Positions 10,659 to 58,029 are shown, numbered from the stretch's first letter. The stretch is 64,000 nt of DNA from a bacterium (GCA_021827985.1 JAKATL010000001.1:45108-109107); one strand, 5' to 3'. The notes: generated by a model from the sequence alone, not told the origin. Numbers and translations are program-made.

Positions 10659-10683
10659 CGCCCCATTCTAGGTGGAGTTGAGA

Positions 10684-41742: not shown

Positions 41743-42213
41743 ATGATCACCATCGAGAGCGCGCTGGCCCCGGCCGCGGCCCGCCAACTGGGGGAGCGGA
41801 TGCAAGAGCTGCTCACCGAGTTCACCGACCTGGCCCTGCAGGCCAAGCAGGTTCACTGGCACGTCACCGGGCCCAACTTCGAGTCCATCCACCTCCAGAT
41901 GGACCGGCTGGTGGACGACGCCAGGGTCTGGGCCGACACCGTGGCCGAGCGCTCGGTGACGCTGGGGGTCCCGGTGGACGGCAATGCCGTCACGGTCGCC
42001 GATGGCTCCGGGCTGGCCTCCATGCGACTCGGGTACCTATCCGGGCCGGACGCCGTCGCTGAGATCACCGGCCGGGTGCGCCAGGTGGCAACCGACGTCC
42101 GGAGGGCCATAGCCGAGATTGGCGAGCTGGACCCGGTGAGCCAGGACCTGGTGATAACGATCGCTGAAGCTCTGGACAAGCACCTCTGGATGCTACAGGC
42201 GCAGCTCGGCTGA
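41743..42213 (+). CDS. dps: Dps / DNA starvation-stationary phase protection protein
   Basis: KQVHWHVTGPNF..IH..MD......R..AD.VAER; DPVSQD; KHLWML. Confidence 0.95.
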   Translation: MITIESALAPAAARQLGERMQELLTEFTDLALQAKQVHWHVTGPNFESIHLQMDRLVDDARVWADTVAERSVTLGVPVDGNAVTVADGSGLASMRLGYLSGPDAVAEITGRVRQVATDVRRAIAEIGELDPVSQDLVITIAEALDKHLWMLQAQLG

Positions 42214-42638
42214 CCAGCTCAAGGGCTGAGAAGGAGGCGCTCCGGCTCGCCGGCCTGCGGGCTACCCGTCCCCGTTTACGGCTGCGCCTGGCGCTGCGGG
42301 AGATGGCGGGGCACCGCGCCGCGGATGAGGTGCACGCCTGGCTCCGGGGCCAGGGAACCTCGGTGGCCCGCTCCACCGTGTTCCGCGGGTTGGAGGAGCT
42401 GGCCCGGGCGGGTTTGGTGATGCGGGCCGACCCGGGGGCGGGGCCGGCCCGCTACGAGTTCGCCCGGGAGTGGCACCACCACTTCGTCTGCCGCCGCTGC
42501 TCCGTGGTGGTGGACGTACCCTGCGTCCGTGGAGAGGCTCCGTGCCTTGATCCCCAGCTGGCCACGCCGGCCCTGGTCGACGAGGCCCAGGTGACCTTCC
42601 GAGGGCTCTGTCCCGCCTGCTCGGCCCGGCCTGGATGA
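42210..42638 (+). CDS. furA: Fur-family regulator, FurA/FurS (peroxide-sensing) type; start probably CTG 42210
   Basis: In-frame ALRLAGLRATRPR upstream of first ATG (42303); HHHFVCRRC..DVPCVRGEAPCL..DEAQV..GLCPAC. Confidence 0.85.
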   Translation: MTSSRAEKEALRLAGLRATRPRLRLRLALREMAGHRAADEVHAWLRGQGTSVARSTVFRGLEELARAGLVMRADPGAGPARYEFAREWHHHFVCRRCSVVVDVPCVRGEAPCLDPQLATPALVDEAQVTFRGLCPACSARPG

Positions 42639-42645
42639 GCTCCGC

Positions 42646-44091
42646 TCAGTCCAGCGACACCATCACGTGCTTGATCTGGGTGTACTCCTCGATGGAGTAG
42701 GACGAGAGGTCCTTCCCGTACCCGCTCTGCTTGAATCCCCCATGCGGCATCTCGCTGACCAGGATGATGTGGGTGTTGACCCAGACGGTGCCGAACTTGA
42801 GCCGCTTGGCCATGCGCATGGCTCGTCCCACATCCCGGGTCCACACCGAAGCCGCCAGCCCGTAGTCGACATCATTGGCCCAGGCTGCCGCGTCCTCCTC
42901 GTCTGAGAAGCGCTGCACCGTGATCACCGGGCCGAAGACCTCGCGCTGGACGATCTCAGAGCGCTGGTCGGGAGGGACCACCACGGTGGGGGTGTACCAG
43001 AAACCGTCCCGCTCCATGGGGGCGCCGCCGGTGAGCACCTCGCCCCCGCCGGCGACCGCGCGCTCCACGAAACCGGTGACCCGCTGGAGCTGCTGGGACG
43101 AGACTACAGGGCCCATCTCGGTGCCGGGGTCGGAGGGGTCCCCGACGCGGAGGCCCTCCACCGCGTTGACCAGACTGCTGACAAAGTTGTCGAAGTGTCG
43201 GTCGGCCACCAGTAGGCGAGTCGCCGCAGTGCAGTCCTGGCCGGAGTTGAAGAAGGCTCCGACCTTAATCCCCTCCACCGTGGCCTCCAGGTCGCAGTCG
43301 TCGAACACCACCACCGGCGCCTTGCCCCCGAGCTCCAGGTGGACCTTCTTCAGGGACGCGGACGCGGCCCGGGCTATCTCCTTCCCGGTTCCCACGTCGC
43401 CCGTTAGGGAGACCATGCCCACCCCTGGGTGGCGGACAATGCCTGCGCCCACCGATTCCCCGTCGCCGGTGATCACGTTCAGCACCCCCGGGGGCAGCGC
43501 CTCAGCGGCCAGCTCCGCGAAGCGCAGCGCGGAAAGGGGGGTCCACTCCGACGGCTTGAGGACGACGGTGTTGCCGGCGGCCAGTGCCGGCCCCAGCTTC
43601 CAGACGGCCATCTGCAGGGGGTAGTTCCAGGGCGCGATCGAGCCCACCACCCCCACGGGCTCCCGGCGGATCATGCTGGTGAATCCCCGCAGGTACTCCA
43701 TCGTGGCCTTGCCCTCCAGGCAGCGCGCCCCGGCAGCGAAGAAGCGAAGGGCGTCCACGGTGGGAGGCATCTCCTCGGAGATGGTCGTGGTGATCGGCTT
43801 GCCCACGTTCTGGGACTCGATGCGGGCCAGCTCCTCGCTGTGCTCCTCCACCAGGCCGGCGAGCTTGAGCAGGGCCTCACTGCGCTCCTTGGGCGTGCTG
43901 TCACCCCAGCCACCGTCGAAGGCCCGCCTGGCGGCCTCGACCGCCCGCTGGACATCCGCCTCCGAACCCCTGGGTGCCCGGGCGATCACCTCGCCGGTCG
44001 CCGGGTTGAAGATCTCCTGGACCCCCGAGCTCTCGCTCTCCACCCATTCCCCACCGATGAAGATCCGCCGCGTGGTCCCGGGATCGATCAT
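42646..44091 (-). CDS. patD: Aldehyde dehydrogenase, gamma-aminobutyraldehyde dehydrogenase (PatD/YdcW-like)
   Basis: [66 protein letters not shown]; ATGA-coupled to gabT. Confidence 0.85.
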
Positions 44092-45479
44092 CTGGAACTC
44101 GCCTCCTTCGCATGACCGGGCTCTCCAAAAGCCCGCTCCTCCGCCCTCCGCAGCTGGCCCTCCAGGACATCCAAGCCCCGCAGCAACGGTTCCTCCTCGA
44201 TCGTTAAGGGCATGAGGGCCCTCAGCACGTTGTGCGCTGGTCCGGCCCGCAGGACCAGGAGACCCTCCTCCCGGCAGCCGGCGAGGATCTCCGCTGTCTG
44301 GTCGACGGCGGGTTCCTTGCTCTCCCGGTCGAGCACCAGCTCCACTCCGGCCATGGCCCCCAGCTGGCGGACGTCTCCCACCAGCCGGTACCGACGCCCC
44401 CACTCTCCGAGGCGCTCCTCCAGAATCGAGGCCAGCACACCCGCCCGCTCCAGCAGCGAGCCGTCCTCCACCAGATCGAGGACGGCCAGCGCCGCGGCAC
44501 AGGCGACCGGGTTGCCGCCGAAGGTACCACCCAGGCTGCCGGGGCCAGGGGCGTCCATGATCTCCGCCCTCCCCACCACCGCCGAGAGCGGTAGGCCCCC
44601 GGCCAGGCTCTTGGCCACGGTCATGAGATCCGGCTCCACGCCGGAGTGTTCGATGGCAAAGAGCTTTCCCGTCCGGCCCATGCCGCTCTGGACCTCGTCG
44701 ACCACCAGAACGATCCCGTATCGGTCGCAGATCACCCGCAAACCCTGGAGGAACTCGGGAGGCGCCGGAACGAACCCACCCTCTCCCAAAACCGGCTCGA
44801 TCACCACCGCCGCCACCGTTTCCGGCGCCACCTGCCCAGCCAAGAGTGCCTCCAGTGCGGCCAGGGCGCGGGCGCTGTCCCAACCCCGGTACTCGTAGGG
44901 ATAGGGAGAGCGGTGGACCTCGCCGACAAAGGGCCCGAAGCCCTCCTTGTATGGGCGCTCGGTCCCGGTGAGGCTCATGGTGAGGAGGGTGCGACCGTGG
45001 AAGGCCCCGGAGAAGGCGACCACGGCGGGCCTACCGGTGTAGAGACGGGCAATCTTGACCGCGTTCTCCACCGCCTCGGCGCCGGAGTTGAGCAGCAGGG
45101 CCTTCTTGGGGTGGGGGCCGGGTGCGAGCCGGCACAGCCTCTCCACCACATCCAGGTAGGGGCGGTAGGCCGCCACCTGGAACGAGGTGTGGATCAAGAG
45201 GTCCAGCTGGCGGTGGGCGGCCGCCACCACCGCCGGATGCCCATGGCCGACGTTCAGAACGCCGATCCCGCCGGTGAAGTCGATGAACTCCCGCCCGGCC
45301 CCGTCCCACAGCGTGGACCCCTTGGCCCGCGCCACCAAAAGGGGGTGGGCGGGGACCATCGCCCGGGGCAGGAAGGGGGAGAGGTGGTCGCCGTCCAGGG
45401 CGGCTCCGGCTACGGTCGGCTCCAGCACCAGCCTGACGATAGCGGCCGTCCGCTCGAGCGGATATGTTGGCGCACCCAA
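44088..45479 (-). CDS. gabT: 4-aminobutyrate aminotransferase (class III PLP); start uncertain
   Basis: [68 protein letters not shown]. Confidence 0.88.
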
Positions 45480-45483
45480 GAAA

Positions 45484-47127
45484 TCAGGCCCGGGATTTGT
45501 CGCCGAGTGACATGATCCGGGCCGCCAGCTGGAGCTGGAAGCGCACTTCGGGGTCGGTCAGATCCACCTTCAGGAGGTCCTGGGAGCGGTCCAGCCGATA
45601 GCGCAGGGTGTTGGGATGGATGTGGAGCCGGGTGGAGGTCCGTCGCTGGTGGAACCCCTCTCGGGCCAGAGCCACCAGGCTGGAGACCAGGACATCGCCG
45701 CCACGAACCCGCTGGAGCGGGCCGAAGAGCTGCTCCAAGAAAGCGGGGCGAGCGTCGGCGTCTCCGGCCAGAACCCGCGGGATGAGCATCTCCTCGTAGC
45801 GCCGCACCTGGCCCACCGGCACCTGGTCGACGATCGCCTCCGCCTCCCGGTAGCTGCGGCGCACCCCCTCAGTGCCCACCAACTCGCGACCCAGCGCCAG
45901 CGAGCATTCCGAGAGGTGGGCCATCAGGCGGGCCACCTCCTGCCGGCCCGGGAGCAGGAAGACCACCCGGTTGAGCCGGGCGGAGGTGACCGTCACCCCA
46001 CCTCCCAGGGAGAGCCCCTGGCGGATGCGATCCGCGAGACGGTCGCGCCGCACCACGTCGTCGCGGCTGAGCGGCAGCTTGACCGGCATGGAAGCCACCC
46101 CCACTCGGTAGCTGGCCTCCGGGTCGAAGCCGAGCAGCCGTGCCCGCTCCTGGCTGGATGCCCCCGCCTCCAGACGGCCCTCCAGGAGTGCGTCCAGAAA
46201 GGTGGCCCCCAGGCGCAGTTCAACCATCGCCACCTGACGCTGACTGGCTATGTGCAGGGCGGCCACGGTGGCGGCGTGCTCGGCGGCCCGCAGGTGGAGA
46301 TCGCTCAGCTCGCTCTCCCCCTCCACGATCCACACGGTCCCCACCAGCTCGCCGCGCAACCAAATTGGGCATACCACCCGGGCACTCAGCGAGAGAGCCG
46401 GGTGCGCCGGGATGCGCACCGGGCCTCGGCTGCGCCGGACCCGCTCCAGGTAGCCGCCGCGCTCCAGGTGGGCCAGCACCTCATTGGGCGTGGCCCCGTC
46501 GGCGAGAGTCGCCCGCCGGACCGCGTCCGGCTGGCGGGTGGCACTCCAACTGGCCAGCAACTTGCCCTCGGGATCCTCAAGGGTGATGTCACGGTCGATG
46601 AGGCGCCCCAGAGTGTCGACCAGATCCTGCAGGCTCCCCGCCGTCACCGCGGCCTGGGTGAGCTCCTGGTGGATCAGCGCCGCCAGCTCGATCACCTTGA
46701 GCTGCTCCATCATGATGGCCGAGTTGACGGCCCTGGTCACCGTGTTGAAGGGCACCTCCCAGGGCAGCTCCACCAACGGGAGCGCCAGCAGCTCCGCCGC
46801 CTGGCGGGCCGCCTCGGGAAAGTGAGGCAGGTACCTGGGAACCGCCAGCACCACGCCGGCCAGGCCCCGTTGCGCCAGCTCTTGGAGCAGCCCCCGCTGG
46901 TCCGCCTCGCCAGCCGGCCAGCTGATTCCGGTGGTGAGCAGCAGCTGACCCGCTCCCACCCAGGGGAGCGGGTCAGGGATGTCAACCACATCCGCCCAGC
47001 GCACCTCGCGGCCCAGCCCGCCCCCGCCGGCGACAACCACCGCCGCCGCCAGCGGCTCGAGAAGGAGCGCCTGGGACACCGTCATGGCGCCGGACGCAGC
47101 GGTGCGCCGCAGCGGGCTGTCGATCAC
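45484..47127 (-). CDS. PucR-family transcriptional regulator (start 47127 or 47085)
   Basis: N-terminal PucR domain (GLGREVRWADVVD, W...GQLLLTTG), central GAF-like region, C-terminal LHIHPNTLRYRL HTH. Confidence 0.92.
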   Translation of the reverse strand: MIDSPLRRTAASGAMTVSQALLLEPLAAAVVVAGGGGLGREVRWADVVDIPDPLPWVGAGQLLLTTGISWPAGEADQRGLLQELAQRGLAGVVLAVPRYLPHFPEAARQAAELLALPLVELPWEVPFNTVTRAVNSAIMMEQLKVIELAALIHQELTQAAVTAGSLQDLVDTLGRLIDRDITLEDPEGKLLASWSATRQPDAVRRATLADGATPNEVLAHLERGGYLERVRRSRGPVRIPAHPALSLSARVVCPIWLRGELVGTVWIVEGESELSDLHLRAAEHAATVAALHIASQRQVAMVELRLGATFLDALLEGRLEAGASSQERARLLGFDPEASYRVGVASMPVKLPLSRDDVVRRDRLADRIRQGLSLGGGVTVTSARLNRVVFLLPGRQEVARLMAHLSECSLALGRELVGTEGVRRSYREAEAIVDQVPVGQVRRYEEMLIPRVLAGDADARPAFLEQLFGPLQRVRGGDVLVSSLVALAREGFHQRRTSTRLHIHPNTLRYRLDRSQDLLKVDLTDPEVRFQLQLAARIMSLGDKSRA

Positions 47128-47228
47128 CGGCCGGGCCCTGCCCCCGGTGGGCCACCACTTCGCCCCGGAAGCTTCTCCACGGCCTGATGATGCACCAGTC
47201 GCTGGCCTGCGTTGCCGACCGGCGGCCG

Positions 47229-48599
47229 TCAGGCGCGCAGTGCCCTCGCCATCTCCTCGAAATTGTCCACGTAGCGCCGGACGTCGTCCTCGGAGTGCTG
47301 GACCGAGAGGGTCCAGTTCTCCTCCGCTCCAGGTGCCATGAGCACGCCCCGGTTCGACTGGTAGAGCCAGGAGAGGTAGGCGTAGCTCTTGTCGATCTCG
47401 AGGTAGTCACGGTAGTTCCGGACCGGGTCCTGGCGGTAGGTGACGCATCCCCGGGCCCCCACGGCCACGACGTGGAAGGGCAGTTCATAGTCTCGAATGA
47501 CCCGCTCCAACCCCCCGCGCAGCACCTCGTGGAGCGCATCGAAGTGGGAATAGGCCATGGGGGTGAGGACCTCCAAGAGGGTGGCCTTGGAGGCCGCCAT
47601 GGTGAGGGCGTTGCCGTTGAAGGTACCCATTTGGCTGATGCGGCCTGACGCCACCATCTCCATGATCTCCGCCGTGGCCCCGACCGCACCGCAGGGCAGC
47701 CCGCCGCCGATCGCCTTGGCCAGACACACAATGTCCGGAGTGAGACCGAAGGCCTCGGTAGCCCCGCCGGGGGCCAGCGTCACCCCGGTCTTGACTTCGT
47801 CGAAGATCAGGACGGCACCGTGCCGGTGGGCGATCTGCTTCAGGCCGGCAAGGTACCCGGGCTGGGGAAGCACCATGCCGATGTTCATCATCGCCGGCTC
47901 GACGATGATCGCCGCCACCTCCCCCGGGTGGCTGACCAGAGCGTGCTCCGCGGCGGCCAGATCGTTGAAGGGAACCACAGTCACGAGCTCCACCACCGCA
48001 CGGGGAATGCCCGCCGACTGGGGCACCGAGTTGGGGGCATCGGCCGGACCCATGAGCTCCGGCTTAGGCTCCACGGACACCATCAGGGAGTCGTGGTGGC
48101 CATGGTAGGTCGCTTCGATCTTCACCAGCCGCTCCCGGCCGGTGAACCCGCGAGCCAGCCTCACCGCGTCCAGGGTCGACTCGGTGCCGCTGTTGGTGAA
48201 CCGCCACTGCGGCAGCTGAAATCGCCGGGCCAGCTCGGCGGCAACCACCACGAAGTCCTCGCCGGGTTGGGCGAAGTGGGTACCCCGCCCCGCCCGCTCG
48301 GCGATCGCAGCAACCACCAGAGGGTGGGCGTGGCCGACCACGTTGACCCCGAAGCCGTTGTGAAAGTCCACGTACTCGTTGCCATCGGCGTCCCAGACTC
48401 GGCTGCCGGCCCCGCGGTCCACGAAGATGGGGAACGGGGGACTGTCCTGGAACGAAGACGGGACCCCCCCGGGGCTGTGTTCGCGGGCTCGCTGCACCAG
48501 TTCCCTGGAGCGCGGCCGACGGCGCTCGAACTCAAGCTCCTCACGCTCGGTGAGCTCGGCGATCCGATCAGTGGCCGGGCTCGGTCTCTCGCTGCTCAT
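47229..48599 (-). CDS. Class III aminotransferase, HemL/GSA-aminomutase-like paralog
   Basis: PGGV, WDADGNEYVD, NSGTE, YHGH.D, FDEVKTG, AKAIGGGLP, GTFNGN; lacks HemL NSPVR motif. Confidence 0.8.
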   Translation of the reverse strand: MSSERPSPATDRIAELTEREELEFERRRPRSRELVQRAREHSPGGVPSSFQDSPPFPIFVDRGAGSRVWDADGNEYVDFHNGFGVNVVGHAHPLVVAAIAERAGRGTHFAQPGEDFVVVAAELARRFQLPQWRFTNSGTESTLDAVRLARGFTGRERLVKIEATYHGHHDSLMVSVEPKPELMGPADAPNSVPQSAGIPRAVVELVTVVPFNDLAAAEHALVSHPGEVAAIIVEPAMMNIGMVLPQPGYLAGLKQIAHRHGAVLIFDEVKTGVTLAPGGATEAFGLTPDIVCLAKAIGGGLPCGAVGATAEIMEMVASGRISQMGTFNGNALTMAASKATLLEVLTPMAYSHFDALHEVLRGGLERVIRDYELPFHVVAVGARGCVTYRQDPVRNYRDYLEIDKSYAYLSWLYQSNRGVLMAPGAEENWTLSVQHSEDDVRRYVDNFEEMARALRA

Positions 48600-48680
48600 A
48601 TCCCATCTCCTTTACACAACACGCCCCCAACCTGGAAGGACACCCTGAGGGGCACGCTCGGCCCCTTGCAGAAGGAGGTG

Positions 48681-48731
48681 TCAGGTAGGAGCCAGGGCCC
48701 GGGTGCGCCGGGAGAAGGGCTGTAGCTGCAT
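48681..48731 (-). other. Possible 16-aa leader peptide MQLQPFSRRTRALAPT in the long 5' leader of the aminotransferase operon
   Basis: ATG at 48731 preceded by GGAGAGG; embedded in GGGAGAGGGT...GCCCTTCTCCC stem. Confidence 0.3.
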
Positions 48732-48824
48732 GGCCACCCTCTCCCTACGGAGCGCGCGGGAGCGGCTGGGGCAGCCCCGTGCGCCGCGCGGGACCGCCAG
48801 CGAATCGGTGGGCATCGCGAACCA

Positions 48825-48932
48825 ACTCTATCTCCCCTCCCGGGTCTCGGGACATGTGGACCCGATCCAGAGTTGCCCCGACATTTTGTGAACCGGGTCC
48901 AATGCCAGTAACTACGGGGGCGAACCTATGAT
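48825..48932. promoter_or_regulatory. Symmetric bidirectional promoter with two imperfect 17-bp PucR-type sites
   Basis: -10 TAGAGT (minus, 48825-48830), sites 48854-48870 and 48886-48902, -10 TATGAT (plus, 48927-48932). Confidence 0.6.
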
Positions 48933-48939
48933 CAATGCC

Positions 48940-50325
48940 GTGACCGACGTTCCACCTCAGCTCGCCCCCGGTTTTTGGATCGCAGACAGCCATCCCGGGG
49001 CGCCACGCCCCCCGCTGCTGGGGAGCCGGCGGGCGGATGTGGCGGTGGTGGGTGGTGGCTTCACCGGTCTCTGGACGGCATACCACCTCCTGCGGATCGA
49101 ACCTTCCACGAAAGTGGTGGTGCTGGAGAGTCAGCGGGTGGGGTTCGGGGCCTCGGGGCGGAACGGGAGCTGGTGCGTCCCCGAGCTCAATGCCGGGCCG
49201 GCACTTTTGGCCAAGCGCTTCGGAGCCTCCAGGGTCGCGGAGCTGCACAGCGCGATGCGGGCCACGGTTGACGAGATTGGGCGGTTCTGTTCCGAGCAGG
49301 GAGTCGGGGGGTTTGAGAAGGCTGGGGTTCTGCTGGTGGCCCGGGGAAGCGGGCAGCTTCCGGCCCTGGAGGATACCCAATTGGAGTGGGAGCGGGTCGG
49401 CCTCAGCAGTCCTTACCAGCGCATCAGCGCTGCGGAGGCGGAGGGGAAGCTGGCCGTCCACCAGCTGGAGGGTGCGCTGTACTCGCCGGAGGGGGCGTCG
49501 GTTCATCCGGGGAAGCTGGTCAAGGGGCTTGCCACCGCCGTGGAGCGAATGGGTGGCGAGATCTACGAAGGGAGCACCGTCACGGGCATCAAGGAGGGTC
49601 GACCGCCGAGCGCCCGGACCGAGCTGGGCGAGGTGACCGCCGATCTGGTCGTGCTGGCCCTGGAGGCGTACCTCACAGGGTTTCCCGGCTGGCACCGGGC
49701 GATCCTTCCCGTCTACTCCCTCATCGAGTTGACCGAGCCGCTCACGGAAGCTCAGCTGGCCTCGGTGAACTGGCGGTCGCGGATGTGCGTCTCGTCGATG
49801 CGGCTCACGGTGGACTACCTGGCCCTCACCCCGGACCGGCGGATCCTGGTGGGAGGCCGTGGGGCCCCCTATCGGTACGGCTCCACGCTCTCCCCCGATC
49901 TGGAACGCCATCGGGCGACCCACGAGGGTCTGAGGGCCATGTTCCGGGAGTGGTTTCCCGCCCTGGCGGGGGTTCGATTCACCCATTCCTGGGGAGGGGT
50001 GTTGGGGATGCCTCGGGATTGGATACCCCAGGCAAGGCTGGACCGAGGTCGGGGACTCGGCGTCGCCTACGGGTACACCGGGCATGGAGTTGCCACCACC
50101 CATCTGCTCGGCCGCGCCATGGCCGAGATGATCACCGGACAGGATTCAGAGCGCACCCAGCTTCCGCTGGTGGGACACGAATCCCCGCTCTGGGAACCAG
50201 AGCCACTCCGCTGGATGGCCGTCCGGTACGTTCAGCGGCAGCTGTCAGGGCTGGACTCGCGAGTGGCCCGCGGCGGCCGCCCGCCCTCCGGCCGGACTAT
50301 CGCGGAGAGGCTGGCGGCGCATTGA
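48940..50325 (+). CDS. FAD-dependent oxidoreductase, PuuB/OrdL (DAO family); start GTG 48940 (possibly leaderless) or ATG 48928
   Basis: ADVAVVGGGFTGLW.AY, GFGASGRNG, HPGKLVKGL, THSWGG.LG, GYTGHGV. Confidence 0.85.
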   Translation: MTDVPPQLAPGFWIADSHPGAPRPPLLGSRRADVAVVGGGFTGLWTAYHLLRIEPSTKVVVLESQRVGFGASGRNGSWCVPELNAGPALLAKRFGASRVAELHSAMRATVDEIGRFCSEQGVGGFEKAGVLLVARGSGQLPALEDTQLEWERVGLSSPYQRISAAEAEGKLAVHQLEGALYSPEGASVHPGKLVKGLATAVERMGGEIYEGSTVTGIKEGRPPSARTELGEVTADLVVLALEAYLTGFPGWHRAILPVYSLIELTEPLTEAQLASVNWRSRMCVSSMRLTVDYLALTPDRRILVGGRGAPYRYGSTLSPDLERHRATHEGLRAMFREWFPALAGVRFTHSWGGVLGMPRDWIPQARLDRGRGLGVAYGYTGHGVATTHLLGRAMAEMITGQDSERTQLPLVGHESPLWEPEPLRWMAVRYVQRQLSGLDSRVARGGRPPSGRTIAERLAAH

Positions 50326-50347
50326 GCCCGGCCAAACAGTGGACGGA

Positions 50348-50425
50348 TTGTGGCCCGACCACAAATTGCCTGGCTCAGATTTGATGATCGGCCCCATGGC
50401 CGCGACCTGAACCTCGGCCTAAAGT
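50348..50425 (+). promoter_or_regulatory. PucR-type activator site plus weak promoter upstream of the ABC operon
   Basis: Perfect TTGTGG-N5-CCACAA (50348-50364), degenerate second site 50381-50397, TGGCCG-N17-TAAAGT. Confidence 0.7.
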
Positions 50426-50579
50426 CGGAGGTTGCCGTTAGTGCCAGGTGGCTCGCGGGAGGGACCGCAGCTGTTTCGGACCGGAGGGCAGGCAGAGGTT
50501 TGGCAAGCTCGGCCCGCCGGGGCGGGCAGTGGCCCAAGGCCGTCCGAGCCGGGATCGCCAGGGAGAGGAGTTGAGAAGG

Positions 50580-52481
50580 ATGAGAATGGCCAAGTTCCGT
50601 GGTGATGGCGCCCCCGCTGGGGGCACGGGCCCAAAGAGAGGGCGCCGGACGGCCCTCGGCGCGGGCCTGCTGGCCGGGCTGGGGCTGCTGGTGGCGGCCT
50701 GCGGTGGGGCCACCACCACGTCTCCCACGGTCCCGACAAACATCGCTCAGACTCCTCCGACCGGGGGGACTCCCGTCGCCGGGGGCACCGCCAGTTACGC
50801 ACTTCCCATCGGGGAGGATTTCTCCTGGATGTTCCCCATCGAGAACCAGGCCAACTACGAGGACTGGAACTCCAACATCGAAGGGGGGATGTGGCGGCCC
50901 CTGTACTTCGCCGGCGGCCCGGGGCAGACCGGCATCAACGACCAGCTCTCCATTGCCAATCCTCCCGTCTACTCCAATGGCAACCGCACGGTGACCGTGA
51001 CCATGAAGCAGGGCTACACCTGGTCTGACGGCACCCCGGTGACCACCGCCGACGTGCAGTTTTTCTTCCAGCTCCTGAGCGCCGGCAAGAACAAGGATGG
51101 CGCCTACATCCCCGGGGAGATGCCCGACGACATCAGCTCTCTCGTCATCAACAGCCCCTACCAGTTCACGCTCAACCTCAATCAGGCCTACAACCCCACC
51201 TGGTTCACCAACAACCAGCTCACATGGATCTACCCCCTGCCGCAGCAGGCGTGGGACAAGACCTGCCTCACCTGCCAGGTGGGCAACAACGCCGCGACCA
51301 GCTCGGGTGCCAAGAGTGTCTTCAACTTCCTCTACGGCCAGTCGGAGAAGCTGAGCACCTATTCCAGCAATCCTCTCTGGAAGGTGGTGGACGGCCCCTG
51401 GGTCATCAAGTCCTTCGATCCCACCACCTACACCGCCCAGTTCGCCGCCAACACCCACTACACCGGCGCCGGCAAGCCTCAGCTCAGCGGCTACTCGGTG
51501 TACAGCTTCCAGTCGGACACGGCTGAGGTGGACGCACTGCGCTCGGGGGCCATCGACTTCGGATTCCTGCCCTTCACCGACCTCACTCTGGCGACCTACT
51601 TCCACCAGCACGGTTTCACCACCGCTCCCTGGCCGGTCTTCTACAACGAGACCGTTGAGCTGGGGTTCACCAGCAAGACCTGGGGGCCGCTGGTGAAGCA
51701 GCTCTACATCCGCCAGGCGCTGCAGCACCTCATCAACGAGTCGCTCTACCTGCAGAAGACGCTCCACGGCTTCGGGCTTCCTGACTATGGCCCAGCCCCA
51801 GTCTACCCCAGCTCCTCGTACGTCAGCCCCCAGACCACGTCGGATCCCTACCCGTACAGCGTCAGCGCCGCCAAGCAGCTGCTGGCCAGCCACGGATGGA
51901 CCCAGGGATCGGGCGGGGTGGATGTCTGCTCCCGGCCGGGAACCGCCAGCAATGAGTGCGGAGCCGGCATCCCCAAGGGCAAGCAGCTCAGCTTCCTCTT
52001 CATGTACTCCACCGGCACCCCCAGCTTCCTCGCCCAGGTCGAGGCCTTCGCCACCGCAGCCAAGTCGGCGGGGGTCGGGATCAACCTGGACGGGCAGACC
52101 GAGACCACCATGTTCTCGATTGGTGGGGTCTGCCCCTCCTCCCCCCCCTGCAACTGGGGGCTGCTGGCCTACAGCGGCTTCATGTGGGACTTCGGCCAGT
52201 ACGAGATCCTTCCGGTGGGCGGCAACCAGTTCGGTCAGGGCAACTACTGGGCCGGCGGCTACAACTCCTCTCAGGCGCAGCAGCTGATCAACGCCGCCCA
52301 CACACAGTCTGGCCTCACCCCCCTCTACAACGTGGAGAACTATCTCTCCTCCAACGAGGCCTCGCTCTGGTGGCCGCTGGCGGACTACGAAATCGTGGTG
52401 GCCAAGAACAACCTGCGCGGCTGGTACCCGCTCAACCCCTATGCCAACTACCACCCCTCCAGCTGGTACTTCGTGAACTGA
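50580..52481 (+). CDS. ABC transporter substrate-binding lipoprotein, family 5 (peptide/nickel type)
   Basis: Lipobox LVAAC, basic/hydrophobic signal, WSDGTPVTTADV, VDGPW, IRQALQHLIN; ATG 50580 after GAGGAG. Confidence 0.9.
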   Translation: MRMAKFRGDGAPAGGTGPKRGRRTALGAGLLAGLGLLVAACGGATTTSPTVPTNIAQTPPTGGTPVAGGTASYALPIGEDFSWMFPIENQANYEDWNSNIEGGMWRPLYFAGGPGQTGINDQLSIANPPVYSNGNRTVTVTMKQGYTWSDGTPVTTADVQFFFQLLSAGKNKDGAYIPGEMPDDISSLVINSPYQFTLNLNQAYNPTWFTNNQLTWIYPLPQQAWDKTCLTCQVGNNAATSSGAKSVFNFLYGQSEKLSTYSSNPLWKVVDGPWVIKSFDPTTYTAQFAANTHYTGAGKPQLSGYSVYSFQSDTAEVDALRSGAIDFGFLPFTDLTLATYFHQHGFTTAPWPVFYNETVELGFTSKTWGPLVKQLYIRQALQHLINESLYLQKTLHGFGLPDYGPAPVYPSSSYVSPQTTSDPYPYSVSAAKQLLASHGWTQGSGGVDVCSRPGTASNECGAGIPKGKQLSFLFMYSTGTPSFLAQVEAFATAAKSAGVGINLDGQTETTMFSIGGVCPSSPPCNWGLLAYSGFMWDFGQYEILPVGGNQFGQGNYWAGGYNSSQAQQLINAAHTQSGLTPLYNVENYLSSNEASLWWPLADYEIVVAKNNLRGWYPLNPYANYHPSSWYFVN

Positions 52482-52496
52482 CTCTGGACGCCGCTG

Positions 52497-54149
52497 TTGC
52501 AGCCCCGAACCGATCTGCTGATCACCGGCGGCCCGATCTGGACCGGCCGGTCCGACCAGCCGTGGGTTGAGGCCCTGGCGGTCCGCGACGGCAAGGTCGC
52601 GGCCGCCGGGCCACTGGCCGAGGTAAGACAGGTCTCGGCCCCTTGGGCCGAGACCCTCGAGCTGAGCGGGAGAGCTGTCATTCCGGCGTTCCACGACGCC
52701 CACTGCCATCCCCTGGGCGGAGGGCTGCAGCAGCGCAGCTGCAACCTCGAGGGCGCCAGGTCCCCCGGTGAGTGTCAGGAGAGAATCCGAGCCTACCTCG
52801 CCTCGCATCCGGATGTGGAATGGGTCGTCGGCAAGGGATGGTCAATGGAGCTGTTCCCCCGAGGAACCCCGGGGCGACAGCTGCTGGACCAGGTGACCGG
52901 TGAGCGACCGGCCTACCTCACCAACCGCGACGGCCACAGCGCCTGGGTGAACTCGGCCGCCCTGCGGCTGGCCGGGATTGACGCCGCGACCCCCGATCCT
53001 CCACACGGCAGGATCGAGCGGATGGAGGCCGGCGAGCCCCAGGGCACCCTGCACGAGGGCGCCATGGAACTGGTCGAGCACTGGGCTCCACCAGCCACCG
53101 ACGCGGAGAGGGTCGCCGCGCTGCGTCAGGCCCAGTCCCATCTGCACAGCCTGGGCATCGCCGGCTGGCAGGACGCCATGGTCGACCCGGAGACCGAGAC
53201 GGCCTACGCGGCTCTGGCGGGGGCCGGGGAGCTCTCCGCCAGGGTGCGCCTCGCCCTCTGGTGGGAGCGGGAGGGGGGCCTCGAGCAGGTCGAGCAGCTG
53301 GCCCTTCGACGGCAGCAGCTCGCCGACTCCGGACTCGATGCCGGAAGCGTCAAGATCATGCTGGACGGCGTGATGGAAACCTTCACTGCCGCACTGCTCG
53401 AACCGTATCTCACGCTCCCGGGAGGGCCGCCTGATGGCCAGCGGGGCCACCTCTTCCTGGACCCCGAAGTGGCGGCCGCCGCCACTTCGGCGCTGCACCG
53501 GCGCGGCTTCCAGGTTCACTTCCACGCGATCGGGGACCGGGCGGTGAGGGTGGCCCTGGATGCGGTGGAGAGCGCATCCAGGGAGGGTGGGCAGGACCTA
53601 CGCCATCACATCGCTCACATCCAACTGGTGGACCCCGCCGACCTGCACCGTTTCCACCGACTCAAGGTGGTGGCCAACATGCAGCCTTTCTGGGCCTGCC
53701 ACGAGCCCCAGATGGACGAACTCACCATCCCCTTCCTGGGCGCGGAGCGGTCCCGGCATCAGTATCCGTTCCGGGGCCTCGCCGATTCCGGCGCGGTCCT
53801 CGCCGGAGGCTCAGACTGGCCGGTCTCCACGGCCAACCCACTCGAGGAGGTCGCGGTGGCGGTGACTCGCCGGGTCCCCTCGGACGGGGCCGGAGAAAAT
53901 CCCGCCCTCCCCCCCTTCCTGCCCGAGCAGGGACTGCCCCTGGCCGTGGCCCTTTCGGCCTTCACCGCCGGCTCAGCGTTCGTCAACCACCTGGAGCACG
54001 TCACCGGCACCCTGGAGGTCGGCAAGGCGGCCGATCTGGTGGTACTTGCCCAGGATCCGTTTGCCGTTGACGCCGAGCGGCTTCCCGAGGCGCAGGTGGA
54101 GAGCACCATGGTCGACGGCCGGCTGGTGTTTCACCGGGACGGTGGCTGA
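52497..54149 (+). CDS. Amidohydrolase_3 (YtcJ / NfdA-like metal-dependent hydrolase)
   Basis: FHDAHCH, DGHSAWVNS.AL, FHAIGDRA, IAHIQ, GSDWPVS, GTLEVGKAADLVVL. Confidence 0.9.
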   Translation: MQPRTDLLITGGPIWTGRSDQPWVEALAVRDGKVAAAGPLAEVRQVSAPWAETLELSGRAVIPAFHDAHCHPLGGGLQQRSCNLEGARSPGECQERIRAYLASHPDVEWVVGKGWSMELFPRGTPGRQLLDQVTGERPAYLTNRDGHSAWVNSAALRLAGIDAATPDPPHGRIERMEAGEPQGTLHEGAMELVEHWAPPATDAERVAALRQAQSHLHSLGIAGWQDAMVDPETETAYAALAGAGELSARVRLALWWEREGGLEQVEQLALRRQQLADSGLDAGSVKIMLDGVMETFTAALLEPYLTLPGGPPDGQRGHLFLDPEVAAAATSALHRRGFQVHFHAIGDRAVRVALDAVESASREGGQDLRHHIAHIQLVDPADLHRFHRLKVVANMQPFWACHEPQMDELTIPFLGAERSRHQYPFRGLADSGAVLAGGSDWPVSTANPLEEVAVAVTRRVPSDGAGENPALPPFLPEQGLPLAVALSAFTAGSAFVNHLEHVTGTLEVGKAADLVVLAQDPFAVDAERLPEAQVESTMVDGRLVFHRDGG

Positions 54150-54188
54150 GCGTGTGAGAATGCTGCAAATGTCGAGCCCAGGGCGGCC

Positions 54189-55130
54189 GTGACCCGTTAC
54201 CTGCTGCGGCGCCTGGGGCAGGCTCTCCTCGTCCTGCTGCTCGTCTCAGTTCTGGTCTTCTCGCTTCTCCACCTCCTTCCGGGTGGGTTGGTCCGGGCCC
54301 AGCTCGGGCCCAAGGCCAGCCCCCATGAGGTGGCCCAGCTGGCCATCCAGGAGGGGTTGAACAAGCCGATCTTCGTCCAGTACGCGATCTGGCTGGGCAA
54401 CGCCCTCCATGGCAACCTGGGGTACTCGTACAAGCTCAATTCTCCGGTGGCAACGCTGCTCGCGGAATACTTCCCCCGCGACCTTTTACTGGTTGGGATC
54501 GCCCTCTTCCTGGCGATCGCAATCTCCATCCCCCTGGGGCTCCTCCAGGGCGTGCGGCGCAACCGGGACGTCGACTACGGGCTCTCCTTCGTCCTGCTGG
54601 CGCTGTACTCCATGCCCAGCTTCCTCCTCGGGGTCATCGGGATCATCCTCTTCAACATCGAATTCAACGTCTTCCCCCCCACGGCCATCCACTTCGGCAC
54701 CTCATTCGGCGCCGATGTCTCGGCGCTGGTGCTGCCGGTGGGCACCCTCATGCTGGGAAACGTCGCCTATTACAGCCGCTACATGCGGTCCGCGGTGATC
54801 GACAACCTGCTGGAGGACTACGTCCGCACCGCCAAGGCGAAGGGTTCCAGCTGGCGAAGGATCCTCTCGCGCCACGTGTTGCGCAACTCGCTGCTTCCCA
54901 CCGTCAGCCTGGTAGGCATCAGCTTCCCCTACGTGATCAGCGGATCCCTGATCGTGGAGGCGCTCTTCGACTATCCGGGGATGGGCCTCCTCTTCTGGAA
55001 CGCCTCCCAGGATCGTGACTACCCCGTCCTGCTGGGCGTCATCCTCCTGATCAGCACCGCAGTAGTCGTGGGCAACCTGGTGGCTGACATCCTCTACATG
55101 GTGCTCGACCCGAGGATCCGCTATGGCTGA
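54189..55130 (+). CDS. ABC permease (OppB/DppB-like)
   Basis: MTRYLLRRL, GNLGYS, EDYVRTAKAKG, RDYPVLLG. Confidence 0.93.
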   Translation: MTRYLLRRLGQALLVLLLVSVLVFSLLHLLPGGLVRAQLGPKASPHEVAQLAIQEGLNKPIFVQYAIWLGNALHGNLGYSYKLNSPVATLLAEYFPRDLLLVGIALFLAIAISIPLGLLQGVRRNRDVDYGLSFVLLALYSMPSFLLGVIGIILFNIEFNVFPPTAIHFGTSFGADVSALVLPVGTLMLGNVAYYSRYMRSAVIDNLLEDYVRTAKAKGSSWRRILSRHVLRNSLLPTVSLVGISFPYVISGSLIVEALFDYPGMGLLFWNASQDRDYPVLLGVILLISTAVVVGNLVADILYMVLDPRIRYG

Positions 55131-56085
55131 CGCTCTGGACGAGCAACTCGCCGCCGCGCCCGCAGTGCCCGATGCCACGCCGGCCACCCTTGGCGCCGGG
55201 GAGGCGGCCGAGCTGGCCTGGGAGGAAGCTTGGACCCCACCCAACCACCTCCTGGAGAACCTCAGGGTCTACGCCAAGAACCGGATCGCCCTCGGGGGCG
55301 CGGTCTTCCTCGCCCTGGTGGTCCTCTTCTCCTTCGTGGGCCCGCTCATCTACCAGACCGACCAGGTCTCCACCAACCTGCTCAACGGGAACCTCACCCC
55401 CTCAGCGGCCCACCTTCTGGGCACCAGTCCCGAGGGTCGCGACATCCTCGGGCGACTCATGGTCGGTGGCCAAGCGACGATCGAAGTGGCGCTGGCGGTG
55501 GCGGCGATCGCGACCGCCTTCGGCACCCTCTGGGGCGCCCTGGCCGGGTTCCTGGGTGGGTTCGCCGACGCCTTCATGATGCGGGTGGTGGACGCCATGC
55601 TGTCCATCCCCTTCCTGTTCTTCGTAGTCCTGCTGGCCGCCCTGATTCAGCCGTCGCTCCCCATCATCATCCTGGCCATCGCCTCGGTCAGCTGGCTCTC
55701 CACCGCCAGGTTGGTACGGGGCGAGGTGCTCAGTCTGCGCACCCGAGACTATGTGTCAGCGGCGCGGTGTTTCGGGAGCGGACCCTGGCAGATCATCTTC
55801 CGACATCTGCTCCCGAACTCCCTGGGCGTGGTGGTGGTGAACGCCACCCTCAAGGTGGCCGACGCCATCCTCACCTTTGCCTCGATCAGCTTCCTGGGGC
55901 TCGGGGTGCCGCCGCCGGCCACCAGCTGGGGACAGATGCTGACCACCGGCATCAGCAACCTCTTCAACGGGTACTGGTGGGAGCTCTGGCCGGCCGCCTT
56001 CTTCATCGTGGGCACGGTGATCGCCATCAATGTCATGGGCGATGGTCTCCGCGACGTGGTGGAAAAGCGGCTGCAGCAGCGTTGA
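55123..56085 (+). CDS. ABC permease (OppC/DppC-like)
   Basis: HLLGT..GRDILGRL, ARLVRGEVLSLR.RDYV.AAR, FLGLGVPPP..SWG.ML. Confidence 0.93.
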   Translation: MADALDEQLAAAPAVPDATPATLGAGEAAELAWEEAWTPPNHLLENLRVYAKNRIALGGAVFLALVVLFSFVGPLIYQTDQVSTNLLNGNLTPSAAHLLGTSPEGRDILGRLMVGGQATIEVALAVAAIATAFGTLWGALAGFLGGFADAFMMRVVDAMLSIPFLFFVVLLAALIQPSLPIIILAIASVSWLSTARLVRGEVLSLRTRDYVSAARCFGSGPWQIIFRHLLPNSLGVVVVNATLKVADAILTFASISFLGLGVPPPATSWGQMLTTGISNLFNGYWWELWPAAFFIVGTVIAINVMGDGLRDVVEKRLQQR

Positions 56086-56131
56086 CAGCCGGTCCGAGCC
56101 GAGGGCCGGACCTAAATGAGAGGAGACACCG

Positions 56132-57610
56132 ATGACGCTAACTCTGGCCGCCCAGGCCCGCTCCGCCCTCGGCCCCGAGCCGCTCCCCCTTCGCCTCTAC
56201 CTTGGGGGTGCCAGCGAGGACACCAGGGAGCATCTGCCGTTGGTGAGCCCGGTGACTGGAGATGTGATCGCGGCAGTGCCCGTCCCGGAGCGCGAACACA
56301 TCGCCAGGGCGGTGCGGCTGGCGCGCGACGCTCAGACGGCATGGGCTGAGGTGGGGGCGTTCCAGCGGGCCGAGGTGTGTCACCGGATCGGGGATGCGCT
56401 CCTAACGCGCCGAGACGACCTGGCCCGGCTCCAGACGCTGGAACAGGGCAAGCCCCTTACGGAGTCAGTGGCGGATATCGAGGAGGCGGCCCAGCTCTTC
56501 CACCTCCATGCTGAAGACATGGTTCGCCTGAACGGGGAGACCTTGCCCGTGCGCGACCCCCACAAGCGCATGGTCACCTTCCGGAGGCCAGTGGGCACCT
56601 GGGCCATCATCACCCCGTGGAACTTCCCGGTGCTGATGATGGCCGAGTTCACCGCCCCGGGACTCGCCACCGGCAACGCTCTGGTGATCAAGCCGCCCGC
56701 TCACACCTGCGCCGCGGTGCTGGCCGCGACGCAGGCCTTTGAGGAGGCCGGACTGCCCCCGGGCCTGGTGAGCGTCCTCCCCGGGGCCGGGCAGGTCGGC
56801 GAGATGATGCTTGAGGAGCCAGGGTTCGACGCCATCGGCTTCATCGGCTCATCGGCCACCGGTGCGCGCATCCAGGCTCTGGCCGGACTCCGCCGGACCA
56901 TCATGGAGTGCTCAGGGAACGGCCCCATCGTGGTCTGCGCCGACGCCGACGTGGAGCGGGCAGCGAGAGCGGCGGTGTACGGTGCCTACCTTTGCTCCGG
57001 GCAGGTCTGCTGTGCTACCGAGCGCGCCCTGGTGCACCGCCGGGTTCACCAGGACTTCCTCGATGCTTGCACCGCGGAGGCCCAGCGGGTCCGACTGGGT
57101 GATCCCTTCGACCCCGAGGTCAACCTCGGACCATTGAACAATGCTGCGGTGGCGACCAAGATGGACCATCACATCCAGGACGGACGCCAGCAGGGGGCCC
57201 GGGTGCTCACCGGGGGAGCCCGCCGAGCCGGGATGCCCACTGACCTCTACTACGAGTTCACCATCATGGACCAGGTGACGCCGGGGATGGCAGCATTCCG
57301 GGAGGAGTCTTTTGGGCCCCTGCTCCCGGTCACGGTGGCGGGGGATGACGACGAGCTTCTGCGCCTGGCCAACGAGGACGCCCTGGGCCTCCAGGCGGCG
57401 GTCTTCACCCGCGATCTGGCTCGGGCGTTCCACTTCTCCGAGCACCTTCAGGTGGGGCAGGTGGTGGTCAACGACACCACCGACTACTGGGATATCAATA
57501 TGCCCTTCGGGGGTGCGGGTGGGAAGCACAGCGGCTGGGGACGCATCGGGGGGAAGTGGACCCTGATGGATATGTCAGATGTCAGGACGGCGATCTTCGA
57601 CCTCTCCTGA
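56132..57610 (+). CDS. Aldehyde dehydrogenase (second; SSADH-like possible)
   Basis: EQGKPL.E, TPWNFP, VIKP, GQVCC, EESFGP, PFGG; atypical ECSGNGP. Confidence 0.88.
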   Translation: MTLTLAAQARSALGPEPLPLRLYLGGASEDTREHLPLVSPVTGDVIAAVPVPEREHIARAVRLARDAQTAWAEVGAFQRAEVCHRIGDALLTRRDDLARLQTLEQGKPLTESVADIEEAAQLFHLHAEDMVRLNGETLPVRDPHKRMVTFRRPVGTWAIITPWNFPVLMMAEFTAPGLATGNALVIKPPAHTCAAVLAATQAFEEAGLPPGLVSVLPGAGQVGEMMLEEPGFDAIGFIGSSATGARIQALAGLRRTIMECSGNGPIVVCADADVERAARAAVYGAYLCSGQVCCATERALVHRRVHQDFLDACTAEAQRVRLGDPFDPEVNLGPLNNAAVATKMDHHIQDGRQQGARVLTGGARRAGMPTDLYYEFTIMDQVTPGMAAFREESFGPLLPVTVAGDDDELLRLANEDALGLQAAVFTRDLARAFHFSEHLQVGQVVVNDTTDYWDINMPFGGAGGKHSGWGRIGGKWTLMDMSDVRTAIFDLS

Positions 57611-57627: not shown

Positions 57628-58029
57628 CTACCGGCTCTCCCGGCAGACACAGAACTCGTTGCCCTCCGGGTCGGCCATCACCTGCCACTCCCACGGCCGG
57701 CCCCCGAATGGAGCTCCGACCAGGGTGGCGCCAGCTTTCAACAGGTCGGCCACCAGTCCCTCCGGATCGGCGGTGTAGAGGTCGAGGTGTACCCGGTTCT
57801 TGACCACCTTGGTCTCCCCCACCCGCTGGAGGAAAACCGGAACCCCACCGGGAGGGGGCAGTAGGTCAATGTATGGGTCCCCGAGCCCAGTGGTCGCCGT
57901 GTAGCCGAGGGCGTGCAGCCAGAAGGGGGCCAGCCCGACAGGGTCTCGGCAATCGATCCCCACCTCGATCCTGGGGCGGGGGAGGTCCCCCGGGGCCCGG
58001 CTCCGGCCGGACCCCAGGGGCTCACTCAA
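57628..58029 (-). CDS. VOC / glyoxalase-like domain protein
   Basis: [33 protein letters not shown]; TTG start overlaps rpoC stop. Confidence 0.85.

Follow-up and report, generated by a model that had tools for sequence, protein, structure and literature searches.

The closest described counterparts of the gene island analysed here are the gamma-glutamylation and transaminase pathways of amine catabolism. The island occupies positions 42646-57610 of a 64-kb stretch of DNA (the window; GCA_021827985.1, JAKATL010000001.1:45108-109107) from an uncultured soil bacterium of the Dormibacteria. G+C content is about 69%, and the nearest relatives of the stretch are metagenome-assembled genomes (MAGs) labelled Candidatus Dormibacteria or Dormibacterota. 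The island carries genes for a PuuB-like FAD-dependent oxidoreductase (hereafter the oxidase), two aldehyde dehydrogenases (ALDH1 and ALDH2), the 4-aminobutyrate (GABA) transaminase GabT, a HemL-like class-III aminotransferase, a PucR-family regulator, the solute-binding protein (SBP) and two permeases (PermB and PermC) of a family-5 ATP-binding cassette (ABC) importer, and a YtcJ-like amidohydrolase. No paper describing the cluster, or the use of polyamines by Dormibacteria, turned up in a search of the literature.

The Puu pathway of E. coli likewise clusters the counterparts of the oxidase (PuuB, 35% identity), of both ALDHs (PuuC, 41% and 34%) and of GabT (PuuE, 47.5%), and has the same end, from GABA to succinate semialdehyde. 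It also has PuuA, PuuD, PuuP and PuuR, whereas the window and the related loci are without PuuA, PuuD and PuuP, and the window is without PuuR. That is, the two features that define the Puu pathway, PuuA and PuuD, are absent from the island, which instead has family-5 ABC uptake, a YtcJ-like amidohydrolase and a PucR regulator. With the transaminase pathway (PatA/PatD and GabT/GabD in E. coli, SpuC/KauB as its equivalent in P. aeruginosa) the island shares a PatD-type ALDH, a GabT and a glutamylation-independent logic (PMC9397018), and its class-III aminotransferase could supply 4-aminobutanal. However, this aminotransferase is HemL-like and not of the PatA/SpuC type, the FAD-dependent oxidoreductase is additional, and transporter and regulator are different.

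Single parts of the island recall three further systems. In the GabR-gabTDP system of C. glutamicum a PucR-family activator stands beside gabT, as in the island, and binds inverted repeats in the promoter; unlike the island regulator, GabR has no GGDEF-like domain, and its operon comprises only gabT, gabD and gabP (PMC7652997). The YtcJ-like enzymes SmELA, SgELA and NfdA belong to the same Pfam family as the island amidohydrolase (PF07969), and are known to strip an N-acyl or N-formyl group off a primary amine, but the island enzyme is only distantly related to the known YtcJ-like acylases, and its likeness to NfdA is one of family membership. Importers of the Opp/Dpp/Nik type also combine an SBP_bac_5 lipoprotein with OppB- and OppC-type permeases. 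Here, however, the OppD/OppF ATPase genes are absent from the window, the SBP is very divergent, and its genomic partners are amine-oxidising enzymes and not peptidases.

We tentatively read the island as an amine unit of two modules. Module B would first take up and hydrolyse a conjugate, and module A would then convert the free amine via GABA into intermediates of the tricarboxylic acid (TCA) cycle, without gamma-glutamylation. Our confidence is modest because the analysis did not single out a ligand: the structural model of the SBP is poor, its structural neighbours are generic, PF07969 is functionally diverse and the distance to PuuB does not determine specificity.

Conservation and modular organisation

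Genes were called from a listing of open reading frames (ORFs) together with Pfam and NCBIfam scans at curated cut-offs. These scans confirmed the gene content, order, strands and end coordinates that an initial annotation of the window had given for two divergent arms (Table 1). For comparison we assembled 78 loci centred on SBP homologues in species-representative genomes and 80 further loci recovered from metagenomes with the HemL-like aminotransferase as query; in all, roughly 170 loci were sampled. The puu and sap operons of E. coli were retrieved as reference for direct protein comparison, and loci were annotated by blastx with a panel of the window proteins and the E. coli Puu and Sap proteins.

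The whole island recurs across the Dormibacteria loci compared (nine found via the SBP, plus L001/L002, L090 and L091), and all nine found via the SBP keep the order SBP, amidohydrolase, PermB, PermC. It is retained in L001/L015, though oxidase and HemL-like gene have traded places and strands there, and in L090, where it does not lie beside rpoC. SBP homologues of Acidimicrobiia (63-76% identity) adjoin PatD-type ALDHs (55-57%), ALDH2 (68-72%), PuuB-like oxidases and class-III aminotransferases. Twelve loci outside Dormibacteria combine good flanks with an SBP of 60% identity or more. A PuuB-like oxidase is found in 58% of them, a PatD-type ALDH in 50% and ALDH2 in 33%, the latter two within the same identity ranges; permeases are present in 92% and the amidohydrolase in 25%. 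As to the co-occurrence of SBP and amidohydrolase with patD that the initial annotation had named as a check, a PatD-type ALDH accompanies the SBP in half of these loci, and the amidohydrolase is optional. This clade of transporters is genuinely associated with amine-oxidising enzymes, and the association extends over two phyla. Taken together, the comparisons support the view that the island is a conserved amine catabolic unit and more than a chance adjacency.

The island can be taken apart along one line. L007, L020 and L021 (SBP 68-70% identical) carry ALDH1, SBP, PermB, PermC, ALDH2 and an oxidase, together with a divergent oxidase, an aminotransferase and AsnC, and are without the amidohydrolase; among the close relatives of the SBP cluster in Acidimicrobiia, oxidase, ALDH and aminotransferase genes are retained and the amidohydrolase is often missing. 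The amidohydrolase itself goes with the transporter. Every homologue inspected at 59-90% identity sits between SBP and permease genes, a position that is constant throughout the Dormibacteria loci compared and recurs in L017, L023 and L092; in L092 the block of SBP, amidohydrolase, PermB and PermC stands alone. Homologues in Actinomycetota at 53-54% identity lie in unrelated neighbourhoods, so that only a subclade of the amidohydrolase is tied to the transporter.

Conversely, L093 (9001-13052) and L094 (4180-13066), from lineages labelled Chloroflexota or unclassified, carry a compact operon of PatD-type ALDH (56-57%), APC permease (PF00324, 24-25% identical to PuuP), oxidase (52-55%), GabT (52-54%) and HemL-like aminotransferase (71%), in which no SBP, amidohydrolase, ALDH2, PuuA or PuuD was found. 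It appears to be a further amine/GABA operon, hitherto undescribed and free of glutamylation genes. Partial versions, with identities of 71-73% to the HemL-like aminotransferase, came from the metagenome scan: aminotransferase, PatD-type ALDH and APC permease in L095; aminotransferase with a PatD-type ALDH (71%) and GabT (64%) nearby in L098; oxidase, GabT and aminotransferase in L127; and aminotransferase with APC permease in L148. These four loci contain neither SBP nor amidohydrolase. Since module A occurs without module B in L093 and L094, and the block of module B occurs alone in L092, the island splits by module and not by strand. Its natural division lies between an oxidation core, module A (42646-50325), and a transport and hydrolysis part, module B (50580-57610), with its own promoter region.

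Several observations concern the SBP clade beyond the island. Individual Acidimicrobiia MAGs contain several copies of it, as many as five in one bin (L034, L040, L047, L057, L062, L084, L085 and others), many of them without adjacent permeases, and in L025, L045, L054, L055 and L068 the SBP directly follows a HemL-like aminotransferase. Other C-N hydrolases beside SBP homologues are an amidase-signature enzyme (L034) and a CN_hydrolase with alanine dehydrogenase (L007); in L006 (Aciditerrimonas ferrireducens) an arginase-family gene and an amidohydrolase adjoin the SBP homologue. Between the window and six loci from MAGs labelled Actinomycetes or Acidimicrobiales (L006, L007, L017, L020, L021 and L023), SBP, permeases and ALDH2 share 63-76% identity; with L001, from a more distant member of the Dormibacteria, they share 75-82%. 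These values suggest that the transport module has moved laterally between phyla.

Table 1. Genes and intergenic regions of the island (window coordinates).
Feature	Position	Strand	Remarks
ALDH1, PatD-type aminobutyraldehyde dehydrogenase	42646-44091	-	481 aa; Pfam Aldedh 577 bits
GabT, 4-aminobutyrate:2-oxoglutarate transaminase	44088-45479	-	TIGR00700; predicted start codon approximate
PucR-family regulator	45484-47127	-	PF07905 106 bits, PF17853 46 bits, PF13556 64 bits
HemL-like (GSA-aminomutase-like) class-III aminotransferase	47229-48599	-	Aminotran_3 214 bits
Divergent intergenic region, 328 bp	48600-48927	.	holds conserved site TTGTGAACCGGGTCCAAT
PuuB-like FAD-dependent oxidoreductase, DAO family	48928-50325	+	PF01266 195 bits
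Oxidase-SBP intergenic region, 254 nt	50326-50579	.	own promoter and operator region
Family-5 solute-binding lipoprotein (SBP)	50580-52481	+	PF00496 133 bits; lipobox LVAAC, Cys41
YtcJ-like (Amidohydro_3) metal-dependent amidohydrolase	52497-54149	+	PF07969 314 bits
OppB/DppB-type ABC permease (PermB)	54189-55130	+	PF00528, PF19300
OppC/DppC-type ABC permease (PermC)	55123-56085	+	PF00528, PF12911
Second aldehyde dehydrogenase (ALDH2)	56132-57610	+	PF00171 464 bits

Oxidation module

ALDH1 passes the NCBIfam subfamily model for aminobutyraldehyde dehydrogenases (NF010000, 724 bits versus a cut-off of 615). Its start is the ATG at 44091, which lies behind the ribosome-binding site GAAGGAGG and overlaps the stop codon of gabT. 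GabT also passes its model (TIGR00700, 522.5 bits versus 506.65). The HemL-like aminotransferase is neither a true HemL nor a PatA-type enzyme: it scores below the cut-off for true HemL (TIGR00713, 353 bits versus 527) and below that for PatA/SpuC (NF008570, 130 bits versus 612). Despite failing the PatA model it may use diamines, and its orthologues in the APC-permease operons are 71-73% identical.

Over 397 aa the oxidase is 34.8% identical to PuuB of E. coli (E = 2e-54), and 'PuuB-like' is a fair label as far as protein similarity goes. It has no signal peptide and is read as cytoplasmic. A D-amino-acid or peptide substrate is disfavoured by the scores (29 bits to the D-amino-acid dehydrogenase model versus 179 bits to PuuB). 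A role in phosphonate (2-aminoethylphosphonate) degradation is disfavoured by a TIGR03329 score of 251 bits versus a cut-off of 632 and by the absence of PhnW, PhnX and PhnA genes.

Transport and hydrolysis module

The SBP belongs to a divergent clade with members in Dormibacteria, Acidimicrobiia and other Actinomycetota. A homologue search recovered 943 proteins at E ≤1e-5, with relatives at 60-76% identity in Acidimicrobiia and other Actinomycetota, and against solved relatives the best sequence E-value was just 1e-6. An AlphaFold model based on 24 homologues was poor (predicted local distance difference test, pLDDT, 65; predicted template modelling score, pTM, 0.55). Foldseek returned the generic cluster-C SBPs AppA, NikA, NikZ, EppA and DppA at about 15% identity, and no specificity was gained from structure.

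The initial annotation had described a family-5 ABC importer. SBP and both permeases bear this out, with the start of PermC overlapping the preceding permease gene by 8 nt, but ATPase genes are missing: no SapD or SapF homologue was found in the island, in the 64-kb window or in the Dormibacteria loci (nine via the SBP, L090 and L091). DppD/DppF-type ATPases lie downstream in about half of the permease-containing relatives outside Dormibacteria. The arrangement implies that the importer uses shared or orphan ATPase genes elsewhere in the genome.

That the amidohydrolase is YtcJ-like, as first annotated, agrees with its Pfam assignment, with 30% identity to the epsilon-lysine acylase SgELA (E = 2e-35) and with the five metal ligands, all of which align with those of SgELA (H69, H71, H343, H374 and D440). 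K286 is a possible candidate for the carboxylated lysine. The enzyme has no signal peptide and is read as cytoplasmic; the SBP, for comparison, is a lipoprotein. Epsilon-lysine acylases are YtcJ-like and free an omega-amine from an N-acyl group (PMC10699109), and PF07969 is a very large and functionally diverse family that includes deaminases, aminoacylases and bile-salt hydrolases (PMC13081902). The name NfdA (N-substituted formamide deformylase) stands on one 53%-identical homologue, by automatic annotation. Known bacterial acetylpolyamine deacetylases are reported to be HDAC-like (PMC4784309) and lie outside the amidohydrolase superfamily.

ALDH2 stays below every NCBIfam cut-off, including those for succinate-semialdehyde dehydrogenase (SSADH; TIGR01780, 323 bits versus 646) and betaine-aldehyde dehydrogenase (BADH; 345 versus 593). 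Among proteins of solved structure it comes closest to SSADHs and BADHs (E about 1e-85), and judged by these it is likeliest to be a succinate-semialdehyde or aminoaldehyde dehydrogenase.

Proposed route

In the E. coli comparison, tblastn with PuuA, PuuD, PuuR, PuuP, SapD and SapF gave no match in the 64-kb window, which upholds locally the absence of puuA and puuD reported at the outset. PuuA, PuuD and PuuP had no blastx match in the 78 SBP-centred loci, no PuuA- or PuuD-like gene was found in L090-L094, and Pot genes were absent from the window and from about 90 related loci. Among the 80 further loci, one match to a glutamine synthetase-like protein (28%) lay 6 kb from a distant (54%) HemL-like homologue. 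A glutamylation-independent route at this locus is plausible on these comparisons. The corresponding claim of the initial annotation is reasonably supported for the window and the sampled loci.

The substrate is probably an amine, most likely a diamine or polyamine, to judge from the enzymes encoded. Module B would import an amide-linked conjugate of this amine, with ATPases supplied from elsewhere in the genome, and the amidohydrolase would cleave it in the cytoplasm and hand the free amine to module A. Acting first is the most economical role for the amidohydrolase because it travels with the transporter. The oxidase most likely acts on the free amine, since module A elsewhere is accompanied by an APC permease and no hydrolase. 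Module A would then lead from the free amine to an aminoaldehyde, an omega-amino acid (GABA) and succinate semialdehyde; the presence of PatD and GabT places 4-aminobutanal and GABA on the route, and both would be fed into the TCA cycle without gamma-glutamylation. ALDH2 would probably close the route (succinate semialdehyde to succinate) or oxidise a second aminoaldehyde. We infer this order of steps and the role of ALDH2 from gene content and neighbourhood.

The conjugated amine and the absence of glutamylation are thus kept from the initial annotation; the order of steps is reversed, and the N-block becomes a property of module B only. We advance this revision with reserve. Possible, if doubtful, is the more specific reading of an unrecognised family-5 SBP clade of Dormibacteria and Actinomycetota for conjugated (N-acyl, N-carbamoyl or phenolamide-type) di- and polyamines, combined with YtcJ-like release and an undescribed PuuB-like route to GABA without glutamylation.

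The route is plausibly new in detail. Potentially new are also a family-5 SBP clade tied to amine catabolism and a transporter-linked YtcJ subclade. Since all parts belong to familiar enzyme families, the advance would be incremental and not conceptual. If correct, the proposal would describe an assimilation route for amine conjugates or polyamines that bypasses ATP-costly gamma-glutamylation. A subclade of the YtcJ/Amidohydro_3 family, which is very large and mostly uncharacterised, would gain its first physiological role, and a divergent clade among the 'peptide/nickel' binding proteins would have a function assigned to it. How Dormibacteria, which are widespread in soil and have no cultured members, scavenge nitrogen and carbon would become more concrete as well.

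Regulator and promoter regions

The PucR-family protein combines a PucR N-terminal domain, a GGDEF-like domain (GGDEF_2) and a C-terminal HTH_30, all of which pass the Pfam cut-offs. It is present solely in the Dormibacteria versions of the island; regulators found outside Dormibacteria are AsnC/Lrp in L006, L007 and L023 and PuuR-like XRE-cupin proteins in L008, L028 and L078.

Alignment of orthologous regions from five related loci revealed conserved blocks in both intergenic regions. Upstream of the SBP, ATTGTGGcccgaCCACAAAT forms a 19-bp inverted repeat at about 50346-50366, some 230 nt 5' of the start codon; TTGTGAACCGGGTCCAAT, half-similar to it, lies at 48886-48903, 42 nt 5' of the oxidase start. 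The pattern TTGTGN{7,10}CAAW has four matches at three places in the 64 kb versus 0.65 expected, a pattern that was defined after the sites had been seen and whose value lies in its conservation: in L010, L011, L013 and L059 it is restricted to the same two positions. Unbiased k-mers common to both intergenic regions gave a marginal excess (4-5 windows versus 0.9-1.7 in shuffled sequence). Shared promoter motifs had originally been said to tie the two arms together. The motif is real, but it joins the promoters of the oxidase and the SBP, both on the plus arm, and the minus arm is linked only through the 328-bp divergent region.

Known sites of the PucR-family regulators GabR, AdeR and PutR are inverted repeats of 17-24 bp (PMC7652997), which makes the island PucR a reasonable candidate for binding the inverted repeat. 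By analogy with these regulators, PucR may thus control the island through the conserved repeat. A CRP/GlxR-type site (TGTGA-N6-TCACA) was considered and dropped, as the TGTG and CACA halves stand one base too close together. Scans for sigma-70 promoters and terminators gave none above chance. A riboswitch or leader in the 254-nt gap was rejected: Rfam gave no relevant match, and the fold energy showed no gain over shuffled sequence (z = +1.0).

Alternative readings

Seven points weigh against the two-module proposal. The ligand, the activities and the expression are predictions from sequence comparison. In structure the SBP comes closest to generic Nik, App and Dpp proteins, and the model-based comparison would also allow ordinary peptides or metal chelates as ligands. 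Transport depends on ATPase genes outside the region seen. In L007, L020 and L021 the SBP accompanies oxidation genes without an amidohydrolase, and the SBP clade may bind free amines. The base for the APC-type operon is two full (L093 and L094) and four partial examples. The search for PuuA covered the window and the sampled loci, and a glutamylating ligase may be encoded elsewhere in the genome. Finally, 35% identity to PuuB leaves the substrate specificity of the oxidase unfixed; PbfB, an oxidoreductase from phosphonate-catabolism (Pbf) clusters, is itself 31% identical to PuuB (PMC10590968).

The order of steps first proposed for the locus differs from ours in placing hydrolysis last. An imported N-acyl, N-formyl or N-carbamoyl diamine would be oxidised in blocked form by the PuuB-like enzyme, converted by an ALDH to the N-acyl amino acid and only then deacylated to GABA. 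This is attractive in that the known substrate of PuuB is an N-acylated (gamma-glutamyl) diamine, and PuuB and PuuC have homologues in the oxidase and the two ALDHs; the amidohydrolase is embedded in the transporter operon, and YtcJ-like enzymes do deacylate omega-N-acyl amines (PMC10699109). However, orthologues of the oxidase, GabT, HemL-like aminotransferase and PatD-type ALDH operate in an APC-permease operon without an amidohydrolase, which speaks against the claim that an N-blocked substrate is required. SBP clusters with oxidase and ALDHs do without the enzyme in L007, L020 and L021, and in L092 it goes with the transporter genes and not with the oxidase or ALDH genes. Hydrolysis before oxidation fits these arrangements better, and we regard the original order as unlikely.

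Quite unlikely in our judgement is that the modules are unrelated neighbours, with module A a conventional transaminase pathway for putrescine/GABA that a GabR-like PucR controls and module B a system for uptake and hydrolysis of peptides or amides. The solitary block of L092, the occurrence of module A without module B, the separate promoter region of the SBP operon and the absence of PucR from all versions outside Dormibacteria would agree with such independence, as would structural neighbours of the SBP that bind peptide and nickel. But Acidimicrobiia interleave SBP and permease genes with PatD-type ALDH, ALDH2, PuuB-like oxidases and aminotransferases, the adjacency in Dormibacteria survives internal rearrangement, and the promoters of oxidase and SBP have a conserved motif in common.

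A hidden gamma-glutamyl pathway, with a GlnA3/PuuA-like ligase elsewhere in the genome or gamma-glutamyl amines imported as such, and with the amidohydrolase replacing PuuD, is very unlikely. Family-5 SBPs do include GsiB, which binds glutathione, and homologues of PuuB, PuuC and PuuE are all in the island. But no PuuA or PuuD homologue was found in the window, the 78 SBP-centred loci or L090-L094, and the compact APC-type operons contain neither ligase nor hydrolase. A family-2 amidohydrolase has been proposed as a substitute for PuuD in Streptomyces (PMC5403932). This protein, SCO6961, is an Amidohydro_2 member and hence of a different family from the island enzyme, so that it serves only as an analogy and was rejected as a direct precedent (PMC5403932).

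Import of a free polyamine such as spermidine is likewise very unlikely. In this scheme the FAD enzyme would cleave the secondary amine of the polyamine to a diamine and an aminoaldehyde, the HemL-like aminotransferase, both ALDHs and GabT would process these products, and the amidohydrolase would have only a side role. In its favour, each of the two aminotransferases and two ALDHs, and the oxidase too, would have a non-redundant use, and there are amidohydrolase-less clusters as well as PuuR-like XRE-cupin regulators beside SBP and oxidase (L008, L028 and L078). Against it, the amidohydrolase keeps strictly to its place between SBP and permeases throughout the Dormibacteria loci, L017, L023 and L092, and no family-5 SBP is known to bind free polyamines.

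Genomic surroundings

Within the segment 36211-64000 of the window, the island separates rpoB-rpoC from the rpsL-rpsG-fusA-tuf operon. It is flanked by an extracytoplasmic function (ECF) sigma factor, Dps and a Fur-like gene on one side and by a glyoxalase-like gene on the other. Placement beside rpoC is shared by several Dormibacteria loci (L001, L011, L013 and L016) and differs in L090. The Fur-family ORF that adjoins the island (42303-42638, plus strand) is short (111 aa) and matches the FUR model in its central part only, and next to it lies the Dps/ferritin-like gene (41743-42213, plus strand). The RpoC ORF (58022-62377, minus strand; 1451 aa) contains a long Glu/Ala-rich, coiled-coil-like insertion at about residues 140-340. 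Two frames farther away on the minus strand may represent gene fusions or over-extended ORFs: one of 295 aa (9780-10667) with ThiE (TMP-TENI) and ThiS, and one of 848 aa (10684-13230) with weak Mur-ligase matches and a full alanine racemase.

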